Shown piece by piece: positions 2,945 through 27,037 of a stretch of 34,083 nucleotides of DNA. The position numbers and the translations under genes were made by a program. Source of the DNA: a virus (Duplodnaviria; Heunggongvirae; Uroviricota; Caudoviricetes); the IMG/VR virus record IMGVR_UViG_2698536651_000008, positions 1 to 34,083 of that record. One strand, given 5' to 3'. The notes under the pieces were generated by a model that worked only from the letters and a program-made list of their open reading frames with translations, had not been told where the DNA came from and searched no databases. The first letter of the stretch is position 1, and each line of letters opens with the position of its first letter.

Positions 2945-5207
2945 AGCCTCCGGGCGCTTTGTCCCTCCGTCAGCATTTGCCGCAGGCACCGGTAAGACGT
3001 TTACCGGTGCTTATGCATGGAACGCGCCACGCGAGGCCGTCGGGCGCGAAAGACCCCTTACACGTGACGAGATGCGTCAGGTGCAAGGTGTTTTATCCAC
3101 GATTAACCGCCTGCCTTACTTTTTGCGCTCGCTGTTTACTTCACGCTATGACTACATCCGGCGCAATAAAAGCCCGGTACACGGGTTTTATTTCCTCACA
3201 TCCACTTTTCAGCGTCGTTTATGGCCGCGCATTGAGCGCGTGAATCAGCGCCATGAAATGAACACCGACGCGTCGTTGCTGTTTCTGGCAGAGCGTGACC
3301 ACTATGCGCGTCTGCCGGGGATGAATGACAAGGAGCTGAAAAAGTTTGCCGCCCGTATTTCATCGCAGCTTTTCATGATGTATGAGGAACTCTGCGATGC
3401 CTGGGTGGATGCGCATGGCGAAAAAGAATCACTGTTTACGGATGAGGCGCAGGATCATCTGTATGGTCATGTTGCTGGCGCTGCACGTGCTTTCAATATT
3501 TCCCCGCTCTACTGGAAAAAATACCGTAAAGGACAGATAACTACGAGGCAGGCATATTCTGCCATTGCCCGCCTGTTTAACGATGAGTGGTGGACTCATC
3601 AGTTTAAAGGCCAGCGTATGCGCTGGCATGAGGCGTTACTGATTGCTGTCGGGGAGGTCAATAAAGACCGTTCTCCTTATGCCAGTAAACATGCCATTCG
3701 TGATGTGCGTGCACGCCGCCAGGCAAATCTGGAGTTTCTTAAATCGTGTGACCTTGAAAATAAGGAAACCGGCGAGCGCATTGACCTTATCAGTAAGGTG
3801 ATGGGCAGTATTTCTAATCCTGAAATTCGCCGGATGGAGCTGATGAACACCATTGCCGGTATTGAGCGTTACGCCGCTGCAGAGGGTGATGTGGGGATGT
3901 TTATCACGCTGACCGCGCCGTCAAAGTATCACCCGACACGTCAGGTCGGAAAAGGCGAAAGTAAAACCGTTCAGCTTAATCACGGCTGGAACGATGAGGC
4001 ATTTAATCCAAAGGATGCGCAGCGTTATCTCTGCCGTATCTGGAGCCTGATGCGCACGGCATTCAAGGATAATGATTTACAGGCCTACGGTTTGCGTGTC
4101 GTCGAGCCACACCACGACGGAACGCCGCACTGGCATATGATGCTTTTTTGTAATCCACGCCAGCGTAACCAGATTATCGAAATCATGCGTCGCTATGCGC
4201 TCAAAGAGGATGGCGACGAAAGAGGAGCCGCGCGAAACCGTTTTCAGGCAAAACACCTTAACCGGGGCGGTGCTGCGGGGTATATCGCGAAATACATCTC
4301 AAAAAATATCGATGGCTATGCACTGGATGGTCAGCTCGATAACGATACCGGCAGACCGCTGAAAGACACTGCTGCGGCTGTTACCGCATGGGCGTCAACG
4401 TGGCGCATCCCACAATTTAAAACGGTTGGTCTGCCGACAATGGGGGCTTACCGTGAACTACGCAAATTGCCTCGCGGTGTCAGCATTGCTGATGAGTTTG
4501 ACGAGCGCGTCGAGGCTGCACGCGCCGCCGCAGACAGTGGTGATTTTGCGTTGTATATCAGCGCGCAGGGTGGGGCAAATGTCCCGCGCGATTGTCAGAC
4601 TGTCAGGGTCGCCCGTAGTCCGTCGGATGAAGTTAACGAGTACGAGGAAGAAGTCGAGAGAGTGGTCGGTATTTACGCGCCGCATCTCGGCGCGCGTCAT
4701 ATTCATATCACCAGAACGACGGACTGGCGCATTGTGCCGAAAGTTCCGGTCGTTGAGCCTTTGACTTTAAAAAGCGGCATCGCCGCGCCTCGGAGTCCTG
4801 TCAATAACTGTGGAAAGCTCACCGGTGGTGATACTTCGTTACCGGCTCCCACACCTTCTGAACACGCTGCAGCAGTGCTTAATCTGGTTGATGACGGTGT
4901 TATCGAATGGAATGACACGGAGGTCGTGAGGGCGCTCAGGGGGGCATTAAAACACGACCTGAGAACACCAAATCGTCAGCAAAGAAACGGAAGCCCGTTA
5001 AAACCACATGAAATTGCACCATCGGCCAGACTGACCCGGTCGGAAAGAATGCAAATTACCCGTATCCGCGTTGACCTTGCTCAGAACGGTATCAGGCCGC
5101 AGCGATGGGAGCTTGAGGCGCTGGCGCGTGGGGCAACATTGTTTTACAACGGGAAAAAATTTACGTATCCAGCCGTAGAAGAGTGGGCGGTTTTTTCCAC
5201 AAACTAA
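2934..5207 (+). CDS. A: Replication initiation protein A (rolling-circle nickase)
   Basis: Large ORF; I chose the ATG at 2934 (MAVKASGRFVPP...) because the ORF-track start at 2892 is a TTG. Contains an HUH-like HWHMMLF motif and the tyrosine pair in AGYIAKYISKNIDGYAL expected for gpA-type nickases. Confidence 0.85.
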   Translation: MAVKASGRFVPPSAFAAGTGKTFTGAYAWNAPREAVGRERPLTRDEMRQVQGVLSTINRLPYFLRSLFTSRYDYIRRNKSPVHGFYFLTSTFQRRLWPRIERVNQRHEMNTDASLLFLAERDHYARLPGMNDKELKKFAARISSQLFMMYEELCDAWVDAHGEKESLFTDEAQDHLYGHVAGAARAFNISPLYWKKYRKGQITTRQAYSAIARLFNDEWWTHQFKGQRMRWHEALLIAVGEVNKDRSPYASKHAIRDVRARRQANLEFLKSCDLENKETGERIDLISKVMGSISNPEIRRMELMNTIAGIERYAAAEGDVGMFITLTAPSKYHPTRQVGKGESKTVQLNHGWNDEAFNPKDAQRYLCRIWSLMRTAFKDNDLQAYGLRVVEPHHDGTPHWHMMLFCNPRQRNQIIEIMRRYALKEDGDERGAARNRFQAKHLNRGGAAGYIAKYISKNIDGYALDGQLDNDTGRPLKDTAAAVTAWASTWRIPQFKTVGLPTMGAYRELRKLPRGVSIADEFDERVEAARAAADSGDFALYISAQGGANVPRDCQTVRVARSPSDEVNEYEEEVERVVGIYAPHLGARHIHITRTTDWRIVPKVPVVEPLTLKSGIAAPRSPVNNCGKLTGGDTSLPAPTPSEHAAAVLNLVDDGVIEWNDTEVVRALRGALKHDLRTPNRQQRNGSPLKPHEIAPSARLTRSERMQITRIRVDLAQNGIRPQRWELEALARGATLFYNGKKFTYPAVEEWAVFSTN

Positions 5208-5423: not shown

Positions 5424-8018
5424 TTAGGCAGCAATACCAATGTTATTTTTACATGTTGAGAGGGTATTTTTTGGGACTGCTGGCCAAGCTAAGTATCTAT
5501 AATAGTTCATATAATCCTTCTCTATAAGTGTTTTTAGCTGTTTGATAGCCTTAAGTTCATCATCGAGTAAAAAGAATGCACACATGGCTGCATCTCCTTT
5601 TGAATTGTTGTGTGCTAAAATTGAATTTATTTCATTCTTTTTGATTTCTTGTTTGTCTTTTTTCTTTGCTACTTCTCTATTGATTATTAAAACATCTTTT
5701 TCCCTGTACTCTTTAATTTTGTCAAGGTTTTCGTTAACTATTTTAATTGTTTCTTTATAATTTCCTGCAAGAAGGTTGGTATAAGCTTTTCCTAAAATAT
5801 AATCACTAAAACCGTAACCTTTATCATAAGCTTCATCAAGAAGGTTTATTGCTTTGTGATAATCGCCACTTAAGGATGAAATATCAGATTTTAATTTTAG
5901 GATGGTTATTTCAGATGTATCTCTTGGCAGGCTCTCAATAAAATCCTCAGCTAGTTTAATGTTGTCTTTATCAATTAATAAGATTTCTACGATGTTCTCT
6001 ATATGATTATTTCTCCACGGACAGTTCATGGCTTCTTTAGCTAGTTCAATACCAGTTTTGATATCTTTATTGCAACCGATTTCATATCGAGCTTTGAATA
6101 TCATGAAAGGAGCAATTCTGGCGATATCACCCTCTTCTTCATATGTGTCAATAAAATCTTTCATTAAATCCGGAGTGTTTTCATCGAAATCATTATGAAA
6201 TAAAGATAAATGAAGTTTTGTTAAATATTTTAATATATTTCTTTTTTTGTTTTTTGATGATGTTTTATATACGTTGGATAATGTTTTTATGCATGATAAT
6301 GTTTCTTCTTTTTTTTGTAATGAGCAGGTGAAGTCAGTATATAAAGACAAGTATGTCTCGTGAGTGGGATTGATTTCCTTCAATTTATCAAGAAGTTCTT
6401 GTGTTTGTTTATTACAATCTTCCTTGTCATGATTTGATTGATGCTTAGTTTGTATTGCATCATATTTTATCCTCCAAGCAGTATTGTCAAGATCCCTGCT
6501 TTGAAGTAAGCTTTTATCAATTAAATCATTTATTTCATTAAAGCTTATCAATTCCTCGTCATTATTTTCTAGATGTAAGATAGCAATTCTGCTTAAATGA
6601 TTCTTAAGATTTATGCTATATGGAAATTTTTCCAGCAATCCTTTGAGATAATTTATTTTTTCTTTCAGATTTGTGAATATATTTGTTCTCAATAGTGCGT
6701 AACTTATATTGAACTCATCAAGAGCGATCAGCTTATCACTAATTTCTAATGCTGACTTTGTTTCTTTTTGTTCTTCTTTTATTTGAATTAACCTGCGCAG
6801 ATATTTGGATTTAATGTTGTCACTATCAGCGTTATGGATTAATTCATTTAGTTTTGACTCTGCGGTTGGATATTCTTTATTTTTAATGAGATTATCAATA
6901 TGTAATAAGTTTTTGAACTCCTCTTCGGGGATTTTTTGATCGTCTAAATCACTTTGGGATAACTCGTCTATTAATGATGATATATCATGTTTCAAAGTTT
7001 GTTTTTTTAATTTTGAGATATCAGATTTGATAATATTATTTTTAGATAGCTTATACTCATCAGCTATAAAATTTTGGATCATCATCTCTCTTTTTGTGGA
7101 TTTTTGATTTCCACCTAAGGAGAGTGTGCAGCCTAATTCTAGGGCTAGTTCTGCCATCAATTCATCAAAACCTTCTATTTCAACCCAATACACTTTTTCT
7201 TGGCCTAGAAGCCTAATCAGCTCTGGTGGGATGGGATCATCTTTTCTTACGCACCAGTATACTCCATTTCGCAGATAGTCATCCTGTTTTAATAAATGTT
7301 TTAGAACATCCATGATAGAGCTATCATTACCAGCATAACCAACGAAAATCATTCCATATTCTTTAGTAAATTCAGTTAGCTTTTCGCGTGTGTTTCCTTC
7401 TAATGACTCGGTTTCTTTTAAAGAACTTTTTATACTATCAAATAAATAATCACCATGTAATTTTATTATTTTGGGTCTAGATGAAGTGATTGAAACACCT
7501 TTGATTGATGAATCATGCGCACATAATAAAGGTCTATCGGAAGAAAATTGATAAAATGCTTCATTTATTAAATCGTCAAAATTTGTTGTAAAGACAGTAT
7601 CAAAAAACTTTGATTCAAATAAATCAACAAGATAAGCATATCCAATTGAAGGTAATTTTTTATCTACCTGACGCTCAACAAATCTCCTGCGTTGAGATGG
7701 GAGGTCAAATTTCTTTTCAAAAAGAGAAGAGTACTCATTGTTCTGATCGTACCAATCAGGGTGGTTTTTAGATAACCATTTTTTAGCTTCTTCGGCATCA
7801 GCGTATTCTTGATTGGATAATCTTGTGTATATTTCAGCTCTCCATTTTGTAACTAGTTCTTGACCAGTTTTTATTCCAGATGTAACGGATGCGCCAGCTC
7901 CAAGAAAAAATGAATAGTTAGGAGATGTGCCTGATTTTATTTTGATATAATCAGCCAAATCTTTAACAGTTCTTTTTTTTGAAACTAGTTTCTCCTTGGT
8001 TTCATCACGCTCTGACAT
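5424..8018 (-). CDS. SIR2-like (SIR2_2-type) domain protein with long C-terminal helical/TPR-like repeat region, 864 aa; candidate anti-phage NADase effector
   Basis: N-terminal motifs FFLGAGASVTSG, FTTNFDDLINEA and KIIKLHGDY fit the glycine-rich, TTNxD and catalytic-His signatures of defence-type SIR2 domains (recognised by eye). The C-terminal ~600 aa is K/E/N/L-rich helical repeat. The gene is strongly AT-rich compared with the flanking phage genes, and sits at the P2 tin/old position. Confidence 0.6.
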   Translation of the reverse strand: MSERDETKEKLVSKKRTVKDLADYIKIKSGTSPNYSFFLGAGASVTSGIKTGQELVTKWRAEIYTRLSNQEYADAEEAKKWLSKNHPDWYDQNNEYSSLFEKKFDLPSQRRRFVERQVDKKLPSIGYAYLVDLFESKFFDTVFTTNFDDLINEAFYQFSSDRPLLCAHDSSIKGVSITSSRPKIIKLHGDYLFDSIKSSLKETESLEGNTREKLTEFTKEYGMIFVGYAGNDSSIMDVLKHLLKQDDYLRNGVYWCVRKDDPIPPELIRLLGQEKVYWVEIEGFDELMAELALELGCTLSLGGNQKSTKREMMIQNFIADEYKLSKNNIIKSDISKLKKQTLKHDISSLIDELSQSDLDDQKIPEEEFKNLLHIDNLIKNKEYPTAESKLNELIHNADSDNIKSKYLRRLIQIKEEQKETKSALEISDKLIALDEFNISYALLRTNIFTNLKEKINYLKGLLEKFPYSINLKNHLSRIAILHLENNDEELISFNEINDLIDKSLLQSRDLDNTAWRIKYDAIQTKHQSNHDKEDCNKQTQELLDKLKEINPTHETYLSLYTDFTCSLQKKEETLSCIKTLSNVYKTSSKNKKRNILKYLTKLHLSLFHNDFDENTPDLMKDFIDTYEEEGDIARIAPFMIFKARYEIGCNKDIKTGIELAKEAMNCPWRNNHIENIVEILLIDKDNIKLAEDFIESLPRDTSEITILKLKSDISSLSGDYHKAINLLDEAYDKGYGFSDYILGKAYTNLLAGNYKETIKIVNENLDKIKEYREKDVLIINREVAKKKDKQEIKKNEINSILAHNNSKGDAAMCAFFLLDDELKAIKQLKTLIEKDYMNYYRYLAWPAVPKNTLSTCKNNIGIAA

Positions 8019-20194: not shown

Positions 20195-22813
20195 ATGAGC
20201 ACGAAATTTAAAACCGTTATCACTACTGCCGGAGCCGCAAAGCTGGCAGCCGCCACTGTCCCCGGCGGGAAAAAAGTAAACCTGTCTGCAATGGCCGTGG
20301 GTGACGGTAATGGCAAATTGCCGGTGCCGGATGCCGGTCAGACGAAACTGGTGCATGAGGTCTGGCGTCACGCTCTGAATAAAGTCAGCGTGGATAACAA
20401 GAATAAAAACTATATCGTGGCTGAACTGGTTGTACCGCCCGAAGTGGGCGGCTTCTGGATGCGTGAGCTTGGTCTGTATGACGATGCCGGAACACTGATT
20501 GCGGTATCCAACATGGCAGAAAGCTATAAGCCAGAACTGGCTGAAGGCTCCGGACGTGCGCAGACCTGCCGCATGGTTATTATTCTCAGCAACGTGGCGT
20601 CCGTTGAGCTGAGTATTGATGCCAGCACGGTGATGGCGACGCAGGATTACGTCGATGACAAAATCGCAGAGCATGAGCAGTCCCGCCGCCATCCTGACGC
20701 CACGCTGACAGAAAAAGGTTTTACTCAGTTAAGCAGTGCAACAAACAGCACCAGTGAAAAGCTGGCGGCAACGCCAAAGGCAGTAAAAGCAGCCTATGAC
20801 AATGCTGAGAAACGTCTGCAGAAAGACCAGAACGGTGGCGATATTCCAGATAAGGACGCTTTTCTGGACAATATTGGCGTTACCAGCCTGACGTTTATGA
20901 AAAACAACGGCGAAATGCCGGTTGATGCTGATCTGAATACATTTGGTCCTGTTAAGGCTTATTCAGGTATCTGGTCTAAAGCAACATCCACCAACGCAAC
21001 ACTGGAGAAAAATTTCCCTGAAGACGGTGCAGTCGGTGTGCTTGAGGTATTCAATGGCGGTAATTTTGCAGGAATGCAGCGTTATACCACCAGAACAGGC
21101 AATGTTTATATGCGCAACCTTTCTGGCACCTGGAATGGCTCAGACGGTCCGTGGAGCTACTGGCGTCAGATTCAGTCAGCAACACGCCCCCTTAGTACAA
21201 CCATTGACCTGAACACGCTCGGAGACGCAGAGCATCTTGGCTTATGGCGAAACAGTAGTGGCTCTATCGCTTCATTTGACCGCAACTATCCGGAAGAAGG
21301 AAGTTATGGTCAGGGACTCCTTGAAGTTCTTGAAGGTGGTGGGTACTCACGCATGCAACGCTACACGACCCGCCGTGGGAATGTATATGTTCGCTGCCTT
21401 TCTGCTACATGGAATGCAGAGAATCCACAGTGGGAACCGTGGTTAAGAGTCGGTCATCAGTCAGAGAGTCGTTATTACGACGGGGATTTGAATGATGTGA
21501 CTTCACCAGGTATTTACAGCGTTACAGGGAAGGCGACAAACGGTCCAATGCAGGATACCGCTGGAGCGACACTGCTTGGGATACTGGAAGTAATCAGACG
21601 TTTTGATGGTGTATCTGTCTGGCAGCGTTACACAACCACAGGGAAAGCAGAAACCACAAAGGGGCGCACTTTTGAGCGCGTCTATACCGGCAGCTCGTGG
21701 AGCGAATGGCGGGAAGTCTACACCTCGTATTCACTTCCCCTGAATCTGGGTATCGGCGGTGCAGTGGCAAAACTCACCAGCCTGGACTGGCAGACCCACG
21801 ACTTTGTGCCGGGCAGTCTGATAACCGTTCGGCTTGATAACATGACCAATATTCCCGACGGTATGGACTGGGGCGTCATTGATGGCAACCTGATAAACAT
21901 CGCAGTTGGTCCGAGTGATGATTCCGGTACTGGGCGCTCAATGCATGTATGGCGCAGCACTGTAAGTAAAGCGAACTACCGCTTTTTTATGGTGCGTATT
22001 TCAGGAAATCCGGGAAGCCGCACGATCACGACAAGACGTGTGCCAATTATCGACGAAGCTCAGACATGGGCGGCGAAACAAACCTTCAGCGCCGGTCTTT
22101 CAGGCGAACTGTCCGGCAATGCGGCTACAGCTACAAAGCTGAAAACGGCAAGGGCGATTAATGGCGTAACGTTTGACGGGACGAAAGATATTGAAGCGTT
22201 TCCGCCAGGTGTTCCGTTGCCGTGGCCATCAGATACACCACCTGCGGGCTATGCAATTATGCAGGGGCAGACGTTTGATAAGGCTGCATATCCGAAACTG
22301 GCTGTTGCCTATCCTTCAGGTGTTATTCCTGATATGCGCGGCTGGACAATCAAGGGCAAACCTGCCAGTGGGCGTGCCGTATTGTCACAGGAACAGGACG
22401 GGATTAAATCGCATACTCACAGCGCCAGTGCGTCAAATACGGATTTGGGAACGAAAACAACCAGTTCATTTGATTACGGGACAAAAACAGTCAGTACGTT
22501 TAACCACGGCACAAAATCAACCAATACTTCTGGCAATCATACACATACCGTCGGTTTTGCTGTGAGCGTGCAATCAGGCGGTGCAGATTATGGTGTTCCG
22601 CGAAGTGATAAAGGTGCTACGACTACAAGTTCATCAGGCAATCATGCACATACAGTCGACATTGGAGCACATAACCATACTGTTGGTATTGGTGCACATT
22701 CACACACGGTTGCTATTGGCTCACACGGGCACTCTATTACCGTTAATGCTACAGGTAATACAGAAAATACCGTAAAAAACATCGCATTTAACTATATTGT
22801 GAGGCTTGCATAA
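20195..22813 (+). CDS. H: Tail fibre protein H, enlarged mosaic variant (872 aa)
   Basis: The N-terminal ~200 aa ([25 protein letters not shown]...) look like the P2 H baseplate-proximal region, but the protein is longer than the P2 H I recall. It has three tandem ~80-90 aa repeats (...[22 protein letters not shown]... / ...[22 protein letters not shown]... / ...[22 protein letters not shown]...) and a C-terminal His-rich GxHxHTV repeat array. Confidence 0.85.
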
Positions 22814-23391
22814 TGGCTTTCAGAATGAGTGCAGAAGCACAAACTATCCGCGTATTTAATTTACTTGATGGAACCAATGAATTTATTGGGGAAAGTGACG
22901 CGTATATTCCACCGTATACAGGTCTGCCTGCAAACAGTACAGATATTGCGCCGCCTGATATACCGGCTGGTTATGCAGCCGTTTTCAATGCAGATGAAAT
23001 AAAATGGGAGTTGATGGAAGATCATCGCGGAAAGACTGTCTACGAAACGAAAACGGGAGCAGCCATTTATATTTCTGAACTTGGCGCATTACCTCCAGAC
23101 GTGACAGCCATTTCCCCGGATGGGGATTATCAGAAATGGAACGGAAATGCGTGGGTGAATGATGAGAATGCAGAGCGTGATGCGCTTGTCAGAGCGGCTG
23201 ACTCTCAGAAGAAAGAGCTGATTGCATATGCAGGTGAAATTATTGCCACGCTGCAGGATGCTGTCGATTTAGATATGGCTACCGAGGAAGAAAAGTTAAG
23301 CCTGACACACTGGAAAAAATACCGTGTGCTACTGAATCGCGTTCAGCCGGAAGATGCTCCGGATATAGAATGGCCTGAAATGCCACAATAA
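22813..23391 (+). CDS. G: Tail fibre assembly chaperone G (192 aa)
   Basis: ORF starting at the H stop (TAATG overlap), in the P2 G position. Confidence 0.8.
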
Positions 23392-24085
23392 ATCGTATTA
23401 GATCTGGTGTGAGATTACTCATCTATGGCACAGAGTAAAACCTAATCTGACAGTCCGCTCTGTGCCTGTAGCGGAAGTATTGTGCTTGCGACAGCTATGG
23501 AAAACGCACTGCGAACGGTGAATCCGGAGAGAAAAGATTATCTATTCTTAAGCTCGGATCACTACGGCGTCCGTCGTACGGTGTGGTCGGGGCATCTTAA
23601 TAGCATCGACGCAGAACGTTATTTGCGCAATGTACGGTCGGTAATCGCGATCATCCAATCATTTGCGTAAACCAACTCTTGCATTGGTGTACCATCCTGC
23701 ATGGGGAATAATCTCCGAGTCATGCATGCTGTCAATACGGCTCTCGCGGGACTCTTGCTGAGAAACTCAACCCATCTTCACTAAAAATGCAGTATCCTGC
23801 GAAGTTCTTATTTCTAATTCACTTGATAAAAATCTTTATAGTTCTCCTTTCCGTAAAACTTCCTGCGTTATTTCTTCTTTTCAGCCCCATCAATACATCG
23901 AGAAGGCATGCGAAGCATTAAAAAAACTCTCTAAATTTCCGAAAAATAGGAAATTTGCTTGGTATAATCGAGATTGAGATACACATGTTCTCATACCCCC
24001 TGCCGGGCAAGCACGGTAGGGATTATTTTCAATCAATATGGAGAGGAGCCTATGGCTTAATCTGTTTATAGAAGGAGTAGTAAAA

Positions 24086-24796
24086 ATGACCAAATGGACA
24101 TTTGAAAAAAATATTGTTGCACAAGGAATTGCTGCAAAAAATAAATCTGGACGTATTCCGGCGATTGACATTCAACCAGGCTCTGGTCTTTTGAAGCGTC
24201 ATCAAATGGCGTTGTATGAAAGCGCAATCAACTTCAGAGCGCCAATTGAGGAAAATGAATGTGGGCGATACAACCCCCCAGGGGGATGTGTGGCGGTATG
24301 GTATGCCTCTGACTCTGCGTTAACGGCGGCGGCAGAAGCTTATGGGCGTTTGCTCCATCTCGAAGGGACGATTTCTTATCCTGAATCGGTACTTTCACAA
24401 CACTATATGTGCTCTGTGGATGTCATGAGGCCAGTGAAAGTGATCGATGTTGTAGCGCTCTGTGAGTTGTTACATATTCCTTTGGATAGCTTAGAGAACG
24501 AGGATTACACTTTTACTCAATGGCTAATGGAACATCTTTATACACATTTCGGGCGTGACTATGACGGGATAGCCTATACCTCAAGGCATAAACGCTATAA
24601 ACGCTGTTATGCCTTTTGGGAACGACCGGATAGTACACCAGCCTTTACCGATACCCCTCAGGGGATGGTGCCTTATGCCAGTTACATCGAAAATGACGAA
24701 GGTATCTTCCCTAAAGGGTGGCACAAAGGAACGATGTCAGGTGAAGAGATGTTCGAAGAACTGCTTGGATTCGAAATTACGCCAGAACCAATGTAA
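24086..24796 (+). CDS. RES-domain protein (putative NAD+-targeting toxin/effector), about 236 aa
   Basis: Motifs GRYNPPGGCVAVWYASDSALTAAAEA and DGIAYTSRH...CYAFWE resemble the conserved Arg / Glu / Ser blocks of RES-domain toxins (recognised by eye). Start chosen at MTKWTF (ATG 24086) with SD GAAGGAG; AT-rich cargo at the P2 Z/fun position. Confidence 0.55.
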   Translation: MTKWTFEKNIVAQGIAAKNKSGRIPAIDIQPGSGLLKRHQMALYESAINFRAPIEENECGRYNPPGGCVAVWYASDSALTAAAEAYGRLLHLEGTISYPESVLSQHYMCSVDVMRPVKVIDVVALCELLHIPLDSLENEDYTFTQWLMEHLYTHFGRDYDGIAYTSRHKRYKRCYAFWERPDSTPAFTDTPQGMVPYASYIENDEGIFPKGWHKGTMSGEEMFEELLGFEITPEPM

Positions 24797-24798
24797 AC

Positions 24799-24828
24799 CA
24801 AAGAGGGGCTGGCTAGCCCCTCTTTTTA
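24799..24828. terminator. Bidirectional rho-independent terminator between the convergent cargo genes
   Basis: AAA-agaggggc-tggcta-gcccctct-TTTTT: 8-bp GC-rich stem flanked by an A-run and a T-run. Confidence 0.5.
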
Positions 24829-24834
24829 AAACAA

Positions 24835-25479
24835 TTAACTGGATACATGATTTCCGAACTGTTTAGCGGCACGGATAGCCAGACTAAGTTCACTATTTTT
24901 AGCGCCGTCCTGCATGATTTGAATCGGCGTCTTTTTCAGGCCTTCGCTATTAACCTCTATTGGTGATTTCAGCACACCCAACCTCAGCATTGGATGGGTA
25001 TTCTCGTCAAATGCCGCCATTACGTCTTCAAAGCCGGGAATCAGCCCGTTATCTGTGAACTGAAATTTCGGGAAAATAAAATCACCGTTCTGCTTGAATG
25101 CTAAAAGCTTGTTCTTCTTAACGCGAATGTTGATCGCCTGGCGGGTGATTCCAAGAATATCGACCACGTCATTTACCTTTAGCGTACCGCCTAACTCCTG
25201 AAGCCCACGATAAAATCGTTCCAGATTTTCGCGACGACGGCGCACTTTACGTAGTTCGTAGTCATTGACACGAGTCTTCTGTTCGAGTTGAACGGTGTAG
25301 AGCAATTGCATCAGTGAACTATCATCCAGCGTGATAGCATTAATTGCCTGGTTTTTGTCTTCAAATTCAGGCATCAGGGAAATAGCGAGGTTGTTAATTC
25401 TTTTCAGAAGGTTCAACTGGTATTCATTCAGCTTAGCTGAAGTGTTGGTTTCCCTTTCTGCTGCGGTGTGTTTGATCAT
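24835..25479 (-). CDS. HTH-containing hypothetical protein (about 214 aa), possible Xre-like partner of the RES protein
   Basis: Start at MIKHTAAER... with SD GGAGGTG. Central helix-turn-helix-like segment LKVNDVVDILGITRQAINIRVKKNKLLAFKQNG; C-terminal ~80 aa of unknown function. Convergent with the RES gene. Confidence 0.5.
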   Translation of the reverse strand: MIKHTAAERETNTSAKLNEYQLNLLKRINNLAISLMPEFEDKNQAINAITLDDSSLMQLLYTVQLEQKTRVNDYELRKVRRRRENLERFYRGLQELGGTLKVNDVVDILGITRQAINIRVKKNKLLAFKQNGDFIFPKFQFTDNGLIPGFEDVMAAFDENTHPMLRLGVLKSPIEVNSEGLKKTPIQIMQDGAKNSELSLAIRAAKQFGNHVSS

Positions 25480-25846
25480 TGTGCACCTCCATTTGACGAT
25501 TATCATAATTCATTTTATTGGAATGGTCAAATTCAAGGGCAAGCAATCTATGGTCAATCAAGGCGTAATTCTTTGGCATAGACCCGATTGACTCATGCAC
25601 CGTGATGTTAGCATGCACATAATTATGGTTATCCACACCTCGTACAAATCAGTCTGCCAGACTTGATAGCTTTTTGGCTATGTAAATTGTCAGTCGTAAA
25701 ATTAGTGAGTACAAATCAGGACAGGTGGGCGAATTGCCCGCCTTTTCTTTATCTGTTGTTTCATCCACTGACCAGCCAGGTCAAATAGCGTCTCATGTAC
25801 TACCCAACGGAAAATAGTTGCACCCATTAACCACGGAGTTAAACGG

Positions 25847-27037
25847 ATGAGTGACTATCATCACGGCGTGCAGGTGCTGGAGATTAACGACGGCACCCGC
25901 GTCATTTCCACCGTATCCACGGCCATTGTCGGCATGGTCTGCACGGCCAGCGATGCGGATGCGGAAACCTTCCCCCTCAATAAACCGGTGCTGATCACCA
26001 ATGTGCAGAGCGCAATTGCAAAGGCCGGTAAAAAAGGCACGCTGGCGGCATCGTTACAGGCCATCGCCGACCAGTCAAAACCGGTCACCGTTGTCGTGCG
26101 TGTGGAAGACGGCACCGGCGACGACGAGGAAACGAAACTCGCGCAGACCGTTTCCAATATCATTGGCACCACCGACGAAAACGGTCAGTACACCGGACTG
26201 AAAGCCCTGCTGGCGGCGGAGTCGGTAACCGGTGTTAAACCGCGTATTCTCGGTGTGCCGGGACTGGACACCAAAGAGGTGGCTGTTGCACTGGTATCCG
26301 TCTGTCAGAAGCTGCGCGCTTTCGGGTATATCAGCGCATGGGGCTGTAAAACCATTTCCGAGGTGAAAGCCTACCGCCAGAATTTCAGCCAGCGTGAGCT
26401 GATGGTCATCTGGCCGGATTTCCTCGCATGGGATACGGTCACCAGTACCACCGCCACCGCGTATGCCACCGCCCGTGCGCTGGGTCTGCGCGCTAAAATC
26501 GACCAGGAGCAGGGCTGGCATAAAACGCTGTCCAACGTCGGGGTAAACGGTGTTACCGGCATCAGCGCATCTGTATTCTGGGATTTGCAGGAGTCCGGCA
26601 CCGATGCTGACCTGCTTAACGAGTCAGGCGTCACTACGCTGATTCGCCGCGACGGTTTCCGATTCTGGGGTAACCGTACCTGCTCTGATGACCCGCTGTT
26701 CCTCTTTGAAAACTACACCCGCACCGCGCAGGTGCTGGCCGACACGATGGCTGAGGCGCACATGTGGGCGGTGGACAAGCCCATCACCGCAACGCTGATT
26801 CGCGACATCGTTGACGGCATCAATGCCAAATTCCGTGAGCTGAAAACAAACGGCTATATCGTGGATGCGACCTGCTGGTTCAGCGAAGAATCCAACGATG
26901 CGGAAACCCTCAAGGCCGGAAAACTGTATATCGACTACGACTATACACCGGTGCCTCCTCTTGAAAACCTGACCCTGCGCCAGCGTATTACCGATAAATA
27001 CCTGGCAAATCTGGTCACCTCGGTTAACAGCAATTAA
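25847..27037 (+). CDS. FI: Tail sheath protein FI (396 aa)
   Basis: 396-aa ORF MSDYHHGVQVLEINDGTRVI...; matches P2 FI. Confidence 0.9.
   Translation: MSDYHHGVQVLEINDGTRVISTVSTAIVGMVCTASDADAETFPLNKPVLITNVQSAIAKAGKKGTLAASLQAIADQSKPVTVVVRVEDGTGDDEETKLAQTVSNIIGTTDENGQYTGLKALLAAESVTGVKPRILGVPGLDTKEVAVALVSVCQKLRAFGYISAWGCKTISEVKAYRQNFSQRELMVIWPDFLAWDTVTSTTATAYATARALGLRAKIDQEQGWHKTLSNVGVNGVTGISASVFWDLQESGTDADLLNESGVTTLIRRDGFRFWGNRTCSDDPLFLFENYTRTAQVLADTMAEAHMWAVDKPITATLIRDIVDGINAKFRELKTNGYIVDATCWFSEESNDAETLKAGKLYIDYDYTPVPPLENLTLRQRITDKYLANLVTSVNSN

Follow-up and report, generated by a model that had tools for sequence, protein, structure and literature searches.

The 34,083-nt stretch of DNA analysed here (positions 1 to 34,083 of IMG/VR record IMGVR_UViG_2698536651_000008, hereafter the window) carries, between the P2-type genes G and FI, a block with two convergent genes, one for a RES-domain protein on the plus strand and one for a winged helix-turn-helix (HTH) protein, hereafter the partner, on the minus strand. 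On balance, the block is probably a RES toxin/antitoxin module of two genes, with a convergent layout that is non-canonical, and resides as a moron in the P2-like Z/fun hotspot. The strongest result of the analysis was that, as judged from sequence comparison, the two genes form one strictly co-inherited and co-diverging unit. Such modules are mainly plasmid-borne; here the module is a P2 moron. The RES motifs, the HTH gene, the terminator-like hairpin and the flanking genes described in the original prediction for this DNA were all present where it had placed them. The core of the module consists of the following features:

24086..24796, plus strand: RES-domain protein, 236 aa, putative toxin consuming nicotinamide adenine dinucleotide (NAD+) (Pfam RES match, AF2 model, Foldseek, conserved residues)
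24835..25479, minus strand: partner protein, 214 aa, winged HTH, putative antitoxin and autorepressor (open reading frame; profile and fold comparison)
24800..24825, no strand assigned: bidirectional terminator-like hairpin between the convergent stop codons (sequence scan, folding)

Linkage and distribution of the gene pair

At all loci where both genes could be detected, the RES and partner genes were convergent (28/28), with 3'-to-3' gaps of 19–61 nt at the loci where both protein alignments extended to the C-termini. The identities of the RES and partner proteins to the window copies were correlated with r = 0.996 over a range from 100% to 27%. Given the recurrence of the convergent arrangement at every locus, the pairing is more than chance.

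The pair was found in an island of E. coli A28 that is not P2 (87% DNA identity), at 55–61% protein identity in Pantoea, Erwinia and Kalamiella chromosomes, and at 27–38% identity on metagenomic contigs carrying plasmid genes (MobA/TraD, ParA-like). It was also present on Rahnella and Klebsiella plasmids and at 11 further metagenome loci recovered by a pattern scan, half of whose 22 matches were chance matches without the module. The prophage, plasmid and chromosomal settings had nothing else in common.

In plasmid records, the numbers for RES and partner were 92 and 95 in Klebsiella, 18 and 18 in Raoultella, and 7 and 7 in Escherichia. The module was near full length on 121–133 Enterobacterales plasmids, mostly conjugative, and on the Klebsiella plasmids it lay near a restriction-modification system. 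The RES clade occurred in only 5 of approximately 100,000 species-representative genomes. The few carriers across genomes, together with the plasmid habitat, indicate that the distribution is sporadic and mobile.

The bidirectional terminator that had been predicted between the two genes was recovered as a perfect 11-bp GC-rich stem, stable on both strands (−18.6 and −19.1 kcal/mol; z −3.4 and −3.2). A GC-rich hairpin of different sequence occupied the equivalent position in A28, in Pantoea and at loci L008, L010 and L013.

Several copies showed particular features. Those of Erwinia and Kalamiella (L004 and L005) were inserted directly after the exbD terminator; they retained the partner but had neither the RES leader described below nor the intergenic hairpin, and with stop codons only about 10–13 nt apart their transcript 3' ends may overlap. 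In Erwinia sp. CGal63, the RES copy (L004, 5860–6567) carries an in-frame stop at codon 44, an invariant tyrosine codon, while the convergent partner is intact. From its sequence this looks like a decaying toxin with the antitoxin retained, the decay pattern expected of a costly RES gene. On the Rahnella aquatilis plasmid CP042360 (L049), the module stands beside the plasmid replication gene, and a second, larger 'RES domain-containing protein' of 460 aa (1174–2556) is encoded 3 kb from the module, next to traX. Locus L006 encodes a 213-aa partner homolog (4001–4642, 34% identity) with no adjacent RES gene. Its gene is convergent with hipA, the surrounding island contains relE/HTH_3 and hipBA pairs, and the protein may act as an orphan antitoxin or regulator.

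The two proteins and the predicted control of their genes

The RES identity proposed for the 236-aa protein was borne out by a Pfam search, in which RES (PF08808) matched with 47.6 bits (E 2.4e-12; cutoff 23.2); RES relatives at other loci reached 33–46 bits. The protein contains the motifs GRYNPPGG, VWYASDSALTAAAEA and GIAYTSRH. Its AF2 model (predicted local distance difference test score, pLDDT, 87.5; predicted template-modelling score, pTM, 0.84) had MbcT as the best Foldseek match (E 2.5e-7, probability 1.00, template-modelling score 0.63–0.68 on the target). NatT came next, then P. putida RES, VPA0770 and ParT (E 0.2–1.2), and diphtheria toxin matched more weakly.

Among 26 family members, R61 (in GRYNP) and E84 (in AAAEA) were invariant and S166 (in YTSRH) was nearly invariant, and these residues were kept in the wider clade. 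Their conservation corresponds to the R-E-S signature of the literature (PMC12457610). No solved RES toxin was found among PDB sequences with the single sequence, the 26-member profile or a 12-member wide profile. Membership of the RES family thus rests on Pfam and fold, the mapping of catalytic-site residues to a structure failed, and the chemistry (NAD+ phosphorylase, glycohydrolase or ADP-ribosyltransferase) is not confidently transferable. By profile match, model and conserved residues, the plus-strand product is a RES-fold protein of a divergent branch with the R-E-S signature intact.

The RES protein is longer than MbcT or ParT by about 50 residues at each end. In NatT-type toxins, an N-terminal 'Flap' mediates contact with the antitoxin (PMC11535050). 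The start codon of the RES gene is preceded by a good Shine-Dalgarno sequence, AGGAG (24073–24077). A longer, 252-aa reading from an in-frame ATG at 24038 was rejected, as Pantoea has a stop there and both the AGGAG sequence and an N-terminal MxKW motif are conserved for the start at 24086.

The partner gene has the ribosome-binding site GGAGG 6 nt ahead of its ATG. The HTH segment noticed earlier in its product proved to be a winged HTH at residues ~99–137, lying between an N-terminal helical region (~1–90, of low model confidence, with conserved R27, D52 and D53) and an Rv2175c_C-like helical C-terminus (~140–214). The HTH is thus central and of the HTH_17/Rv2175c_wHTH type; no HTH_3 match was obtained for the window partner. 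In PHROGs, a weak excisionase-type HTH match was the only one, and the NCBIfam and PADLOC scans gave no match for either the RES protein or the partner.

An exhaustive profile search with the partner collected 1,494 representatives (E ≤ 0.001). The profile of 87 partner relatives matched the Rv2175c sequence with E 1.5e-11, spanning the winged helix and the C-terminal domain. Among these 87 relatives, Pfam matches were found to HTH_17 in 54, Rv2175c_wHTH in 29, Xre-MbcA-ParS_M in 12, Rv2175c_C in 9 and Xre_MbcA_ParS_C (PF09722) in 4 (best E 9.7e-5); the Rv2175c_wHTH, Xre-MbcA-ParS_M and Rv2175c_C matches were below gathering thresholds in the individually inspected members. Sub-threshold matches of family members to Xre-MbcA-ParS_M and Xre_MbcA_ParS_C speak for the antitoxin identity of the partner. 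At the fold level, the partner resembles MbcA, VPA0769 and NatR. The partner has the domain order of PF21531 + PF18367, with the winged HTH first and the Rv2175c-type helical C-terminal domain after it, and the minus-strand product is an Rv2175c-type winged-HTH protein.

Distant members of the partner family, examined one at a time, included relatives in an operon arrangement. At locus L044, the 202-aa relative P0252 is encoded upstream of a 226-aa RES gene (Pfam 46 bits), co-directionally and with an 11-nt overlap; at P0212, a RES fragment overlaps downstream in the same layout. In hhalign comparisons, the match of the partner family to P0252 covered both winged helix and C-terminal domain (98.8% probability, E 5e-17), and the window RES family matched the P0252-linked RES protein with 82% (E 1e-5). 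As the same two families occur in both classic type II and convergent layouts, rearrangement of a RES toxin-antitoxin system is the best account of the convergent clade.

Upstream of the two genes, the following predicted control elements were located:

25491..25532, minus strand: partner promoter with the inverted repeat ATTTGAC-N28-GTCAAAT, putative operator (promoter scan 10/12)
23960..23968, plus strand: candidate extended −10 promoter of the RES gene (TGGTATAAT; read from the sequence, conserved in near-clade loci)
23975..23993, plus strand: leader hairpin H1 (RNAalifold and compensatory changes)
23998..24021, plus strand: leader hairpin H2, 8-bp stem with loop GGCAAGCA and then a T-run, terminator-like (terminator-like scan; covariation)
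24038..24065, plus strand: invariant leader block with a Shine-Dalgarno sequence, the mini-ORF (open reading frame) ATG GCT TAA at 24052–24060 and a predicted third helix (alignment)

The predicted sigma-70 promoter of the partner consists of a −35 hexamer TTGACC (25530–25525), 17 nt of spacing and a −10 hexamer TATGAT (25507–25502). The pattern ATTTGAC-N28-GTCAAAT occurred once in the 34-kb window. An operator-like repeat was present at the same position in most loci, including the far loci L044, L045 and L009, and its extended arms changed together across loci (TTGACTATT/AATAGTCAA, TTTGACGAGT/ACTCGTCAAA and TTTTACACTT/AAGTGTAAAA). A perfect inverted repeat of at least 6 nt was found in 20 of 27 upstream regions, compared to 29% of shuffles. 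The repeat is likely to be an autorepression operator, as far as its sequence and position indicate.

At the RES promoter, no operator motif was found. The sequences TCAATCAA or GGGCAAGCA, common to both upstream regions, were not conserved in other loci and were dismissed as chance. One-mismatch copies of the right half-site of the operator, TCGTCAAATGG, were seen within the coding regions of RES (24199–24209) and the partner (25004–25014); the window has three matches with at most one mismatch, all of them in the module, which may be chance.

The RES leader is about 110 nt long and folds with z = −2.6 as a whole; H2 folds with −16.4 kcal/mol. Over 14 distinct leaders, the pairing held in 90% of cells, compared to 33–47% with the pairing partners slid, and compensatory changes were found at 8 pairs; none of 500 shuffles matched the observed values. 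For H2 alone, all 8 pairs covaried and 92% of cells were paired, again with 0/500 shuffles as high. The 8-nt loop of H2 was identical at L010 and L013 on wholly different stems, despite RES identities of 32–33%, these distant hairpins having been chosen by eye. The 28-nt block at 24038–24065 was invariant across the 14 leaders, down to 58% protein identity, and was more conserved than the coding sequence; its mini-ORF encodes Met-Ala-stop. An Rfam scan of the region gave no match.

Insertion site, proposed mechanism and alternative explanations

The surroundings of the module contain the following further features:

23385..23472, no strand assigned: left inverted repeat of the P2 Z/fun region (alignment with the 'left inverted repeat' features of P2-EC58 and P2-EC30, AJ512683 and AJ512676)
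25632..25760, no strand assigned: right inverted repeat of the P2 Z/fun region (alignment with the Z-region features of AJ512683 and AJ512676; terminator-like hairpin 25723–25743 inside)
23482..23670, plus strand: C-terminal remnant of an IS66-family transposase (62-aa ORF), outside the RES module (PHROG, tblastn)

The Z/fun site is a recognised exclusion-gene position in P2-like phages (fun(Z)). That an AT-rich block occupies this position, as originally proposed, was upheld: the block has a G+C content (GC) of 0.38–0.48, compared to 0.52–0.60 in its flanks, and lies inside the Z-region repeats between the tail-fibre assembly gene (Caudo_TAP, 22813–23391; G of P2) and the tail sheath gene (25847–27037; FI of P2). 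RefSeq annotates an identical gene order in E. coli prophages. The Z-region inverted repeats, about 100 nt each, are intact on either side of the cargo, and the cargo proper, lying within both, thus spans approximately 23473–25631. The left repeat contains a 9-bp stem (GGCACAGAG...CTCTGTGCC), and the hairpin of the right repeat stands just upstream of FI. Among 5,426 complete E. coli genomes, the flanks were common to 966 and the cargo was present in only 10, at 99% identity. Neither the cargo, by DNA or by protein, nor any RES protein was found in 50,697 phage records.

The 62-aa ORF upstream of the RES gene matched PHROG transposase families (1.7e-6 and 3e-5, aligned to its last ~55 residues) and, in tblastn, had 58% identity to an annotated IS66 family transposase. 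The stretch 23473–23960 (~490 nt) was present only in the 10 cargo-bearing E. coli prophages and absent from the A28 copy. PADLOC gave no model match at E ≤ 1 for this ORF, for the RES protein or for the partner. The suggestion that the ORF might neutralise the RES protein as an antitoxin was rejected, as it is a transposase remnant that no other copy of the module contains. A plasmid is the probable source from which the module reached the Z region, along with the IS66 fragment.

The AT bias of the block is milder than that of the other cargo in the window, at 5–8 kb (GC 0.29–0.36). This other cargo (5424–8018, minus strand) is flanked by the portal gene and replication gene A and encodes one protein only, of 864 aa and with a SIR2 domain (Pfam SIR2_2 with 55 bits; PADLOC SIR2-type models with up to 206 bits, and also PDC-S65). 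By sequence, the same prophage thus holds two independent candidates for NAD+-targeting proteins, SIR2 and RES.

For the module, we propose that the partner would neutralise the RES enzyme by direct binding, via its C-terminal Rv2175c_C/MbcA-like domain and/or its conserved N-terminal helical region, and would use the TTGAC-N28-GTCAA inverted repeat to repress its own promoter. The toxin would be transcribed independently from the extended −10 promoter, and its output would be limited by the leader, with its two covarying hairpins, the second terminator-like, and its invariant mini-ORF block. Having its own promoter and leader, the toxin would be synthesised uncoupled from the antitoxin, in contrast to Xre-RES operons. 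Should the antitoxin be lost or titrated, for example by shut-off of host transcription in infection or by loss of the element, the freed RES enzyme would consume NAD+ (as a phosphorylase or glycohydrolase) or ADP-ribosylate a target, and growth would stop. The outcome would be abortive infection or exclusion in the prophage and addiction on plasmids.

NAD+ degradation and a role in defence or abortive infection, as originally predicted, are plausible. What suggests the defensive role is where the module is inserted, the presence of a SIR2-domain protein in the prophage's other hotspot and the high validation rate of P2/P4 hotspot genes without known function. An addiction role is at least as likely, because the main habitat of the module is conjugative plasmids; the two roles are not exclusive. 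A more ambitious version, which must be called speculative and improbable as a whole, is that the module provides RES-based abortive infection, the first immune role for a RES toxin. Convergence would then gate the toxin independently, the leader with its GGCAAGCA loop and mini-ORF would serve as a riboregulator or attenuator, its reader in infection being a protein or the translation state, and the self-repressed antitoxin would set the threshold.

Several observations weigh against a toxin/antitoxin module. The window partner itself had no match in Pfam, NCBIfam or PADLOC, and a profile of the partner restricted to the C-terminal domain retrieved no RES antitoxin from PDB sequences, not even Rv2175c. 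Partner homologs without a neighbouring RES gene exist (L006, L047). Because the operator's left arm is at once the −35 hexamer, promoter function explains part of its conservation, and the promoter and transcript ends are predictions from sequence. Certain N-terminally extended RES toxins, NatT among them, are harmless by themselves (PMC11535050), and the window RES protein is likewise extended, by about 50 N-terminal residues.

The idea that the genes are unrelated neighbours, with the RES protein neutralised by the 62-aa ORF or another factor, draws on the fact that toxin-antitoxin pairs are not usually convergent with separate promoters. It is hardly credible and already refuted by the comparative data: the pair is convergent at 28/28 loci, its proteins co-diverge, it recurs in prophage, plasmid and chromosome with nothing else shared, and the 62-aa ORF is a transposase fragment confined to the prophage copy. 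Of the explanations originally left open for the layout, a different regulatory logic is therefore favoured, while an unrelated HTH protein was rejected on the grounds of co-inheritance and co-divergence, the far homologs in antitoxin position and the MbcA/VPA0769/NatR-like fold. A subtler possibility is that the partner is only a transcription factor that senses a signal and switches the system, the RES protein being restrained by leader attenuation, low translation or N-terminal autoinhibition. This would suit the DNA-binding winged HTH and the conserved operator-like repeat at the partner's own promoter, the predicted promoter and elaborate conserved leader of the RES gene, the C-terminal-only profile without a sequence link to toxin-binding domains, and the fact that Rv2175c is itself a DNA-binding protein. 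We nevertheless regard it as unlikely. With no operator copy at the RES promoter, there is no sign that the partner controls RES transcription directly; far homologs occupy the antitoxin slot of overlapping operons, a hallmark of toxin-binding type II antitoxins; the tight co-divergence (r = 0.996) suggests a protein-protein interface; and the Erwinia and Kalamiella copies keep the partner though the leader is absent.

Plasmid addiction by post-segregational killing, with no anti-phage function, is a real possibility, although somewhat short of an even chance; the P2 hotspot copy would then be an IS66-mediated passenger, at most stabilising the prophage. The Z/fun site, as an exclusion-gene position of P2-like phages, speaks against this, as do the SIR2-domain, defence-type protein in the other hotspot of the prophage and the restriction-modification system near the module on Klebsiella plasmids; moreover, addiction and defence are not mutually exclusive. 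P2 and P4 hotspot genes without known function also often prove to be defences, with a high validation rate (bioRxiv 10.64898/2026.02.27.708500). Addiction is in turn favoured by the 121–133 mostly conjugative plasmids, the Rahnella copy beside a replication gene, the IS66 remnant that abuts the module in the prophage, the lack of a PADLOC defence model match, and the rarity of the cargo (10/5,426 complete E. coli genomes, 0/50,697 phage records). A related RES-Xre locus is reported to stabilise a Klebsiella virulence plasmid (PMC10896132). As for the chemistry, it is rather doubtful that the RES protein is an ADP-ribosyltransferase (ART) that modifies a protein or nucleic acid, as ParT does with Prs, and not an NAD+ phosphorylase or glycohydrolase. 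RES toxins do differ in chemistry, MbcT and NatT being phosphorylases, ParT an ART and VPA0770 a predicted ART (PMC12457610). The model also matches ParT, VPA0770 and diphtheria toxin, and with no sequence-level link to a solved RES toxin the subfamily chemistry is not transferable. However, the best fold match was MbcT (E 2.5e-7) and then NatT, both NAD+ phosphorylases, with ParT far lower; the RefSeq name 'RES family NAD+ phosphorylase' points the same way as a family-level label only.

If the toxin/antitoxin reading holds, a RES module in an exclusion hotspot would make an immune role directly testable in a compact 1.6-kb construct, for a toxin family that is widespread. The pair would also be an example of toxin and antitoxin genes stably inherited tail-to-tail and separately regulated down to 27% identity, a layout that operon-based finders would miss. 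Rv2175c-type proteins would thereby be linked to RES antitoxins, and a conserved leader RNA without an Rfam match was revealed upstream of a toxin gene.

Comparison with known systems

No paper on convergent RES modules or on an anti-phage role of RES toxins was found in the literature search. According to Santi et al. 2024, RES toxin-antitoxin systems had not been linked to immunity in any case, and the known NAD+-depleting defences were only TIR and SIR2 enzymes (PMC11535050). The P2 hotspot studied by Rousset et al. 2022 was the one beside cos and not Z/fun, and RES is not mentioned there. If defensive, the module would share NAD+ loss and abortive infection with the SIR2- and TIR-based anti-phage systems, although its enzyme fold (RES/ART-like) differs from theirs.

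With P2 fun(Z) and other Z-region cargo (AJ512676–AJ512683), the module shares the G–FI insertion site, the same left and right inverted repeats, a sequence AT-richer than the backbone and genes with their own promoters in the lysogen. Its gene content is, however, unrelated to theirs.

Rv2175c of Mycobacterium tuberculosis is a substrate of the kinase PknL and is not known to be the partner of a RES toxin. Unlike the partner, it has only 146 aa and no N-terminal helical region (PDB 2kfs). The operon-type relatives at L044 (P0252 with its 226-aa RES gene) have the same partner family, a related RES protein and a TTGAC-N30-GTCAA repeat at the partner promoter; in contrast to the window, their antitoxin-position gene is upstream, co-directional and overlapping, the canonical layout from which the convergent clade departs.

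The Xre-RES, MbcA-MbcT, ParS-ParT and NatR-NatT systems (COG5654 toxins) resemble the module in the RES domain, fold and R-E-S signature and as two-gene mobile modules. In both cases, the partner has a DNA-binding HTH and, at its C-terminus, a helical domain with a fold like that of MbcA, VPA0769 and NatR, and a palindromic putative operator lies at the partner promoter, as expected of an autoregulated antitoxin. The differences concern both genes. The RES toxin of the module has its own predicted promoter and structured leader, is longer (236 aa) and has no sequence-level match to a solved RES toxin. The partner carries an HTH_17/Rv2175c-type winged helix in the middle of its 214 aa in place of the N-terminal Xre (HTH_3) domain of canonical antitoxins, and an extra conserved N-terminal helical region of ~90 aa. 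As the original prediction had recognised, RES systems are not typically convergent with separate promoters; the antitoxin gene is upstream in those that have been characterised, natR-natT being one (PMC11535050). With convergent genes and a terminator between them, there is no antitoxin-then-toxin co-transcription. The module thus departs from the Xre-RES operon in two defining features, gene order with co-transcription and the N-terminal Xre HTH, and is an architectural variant outside the canonical type.

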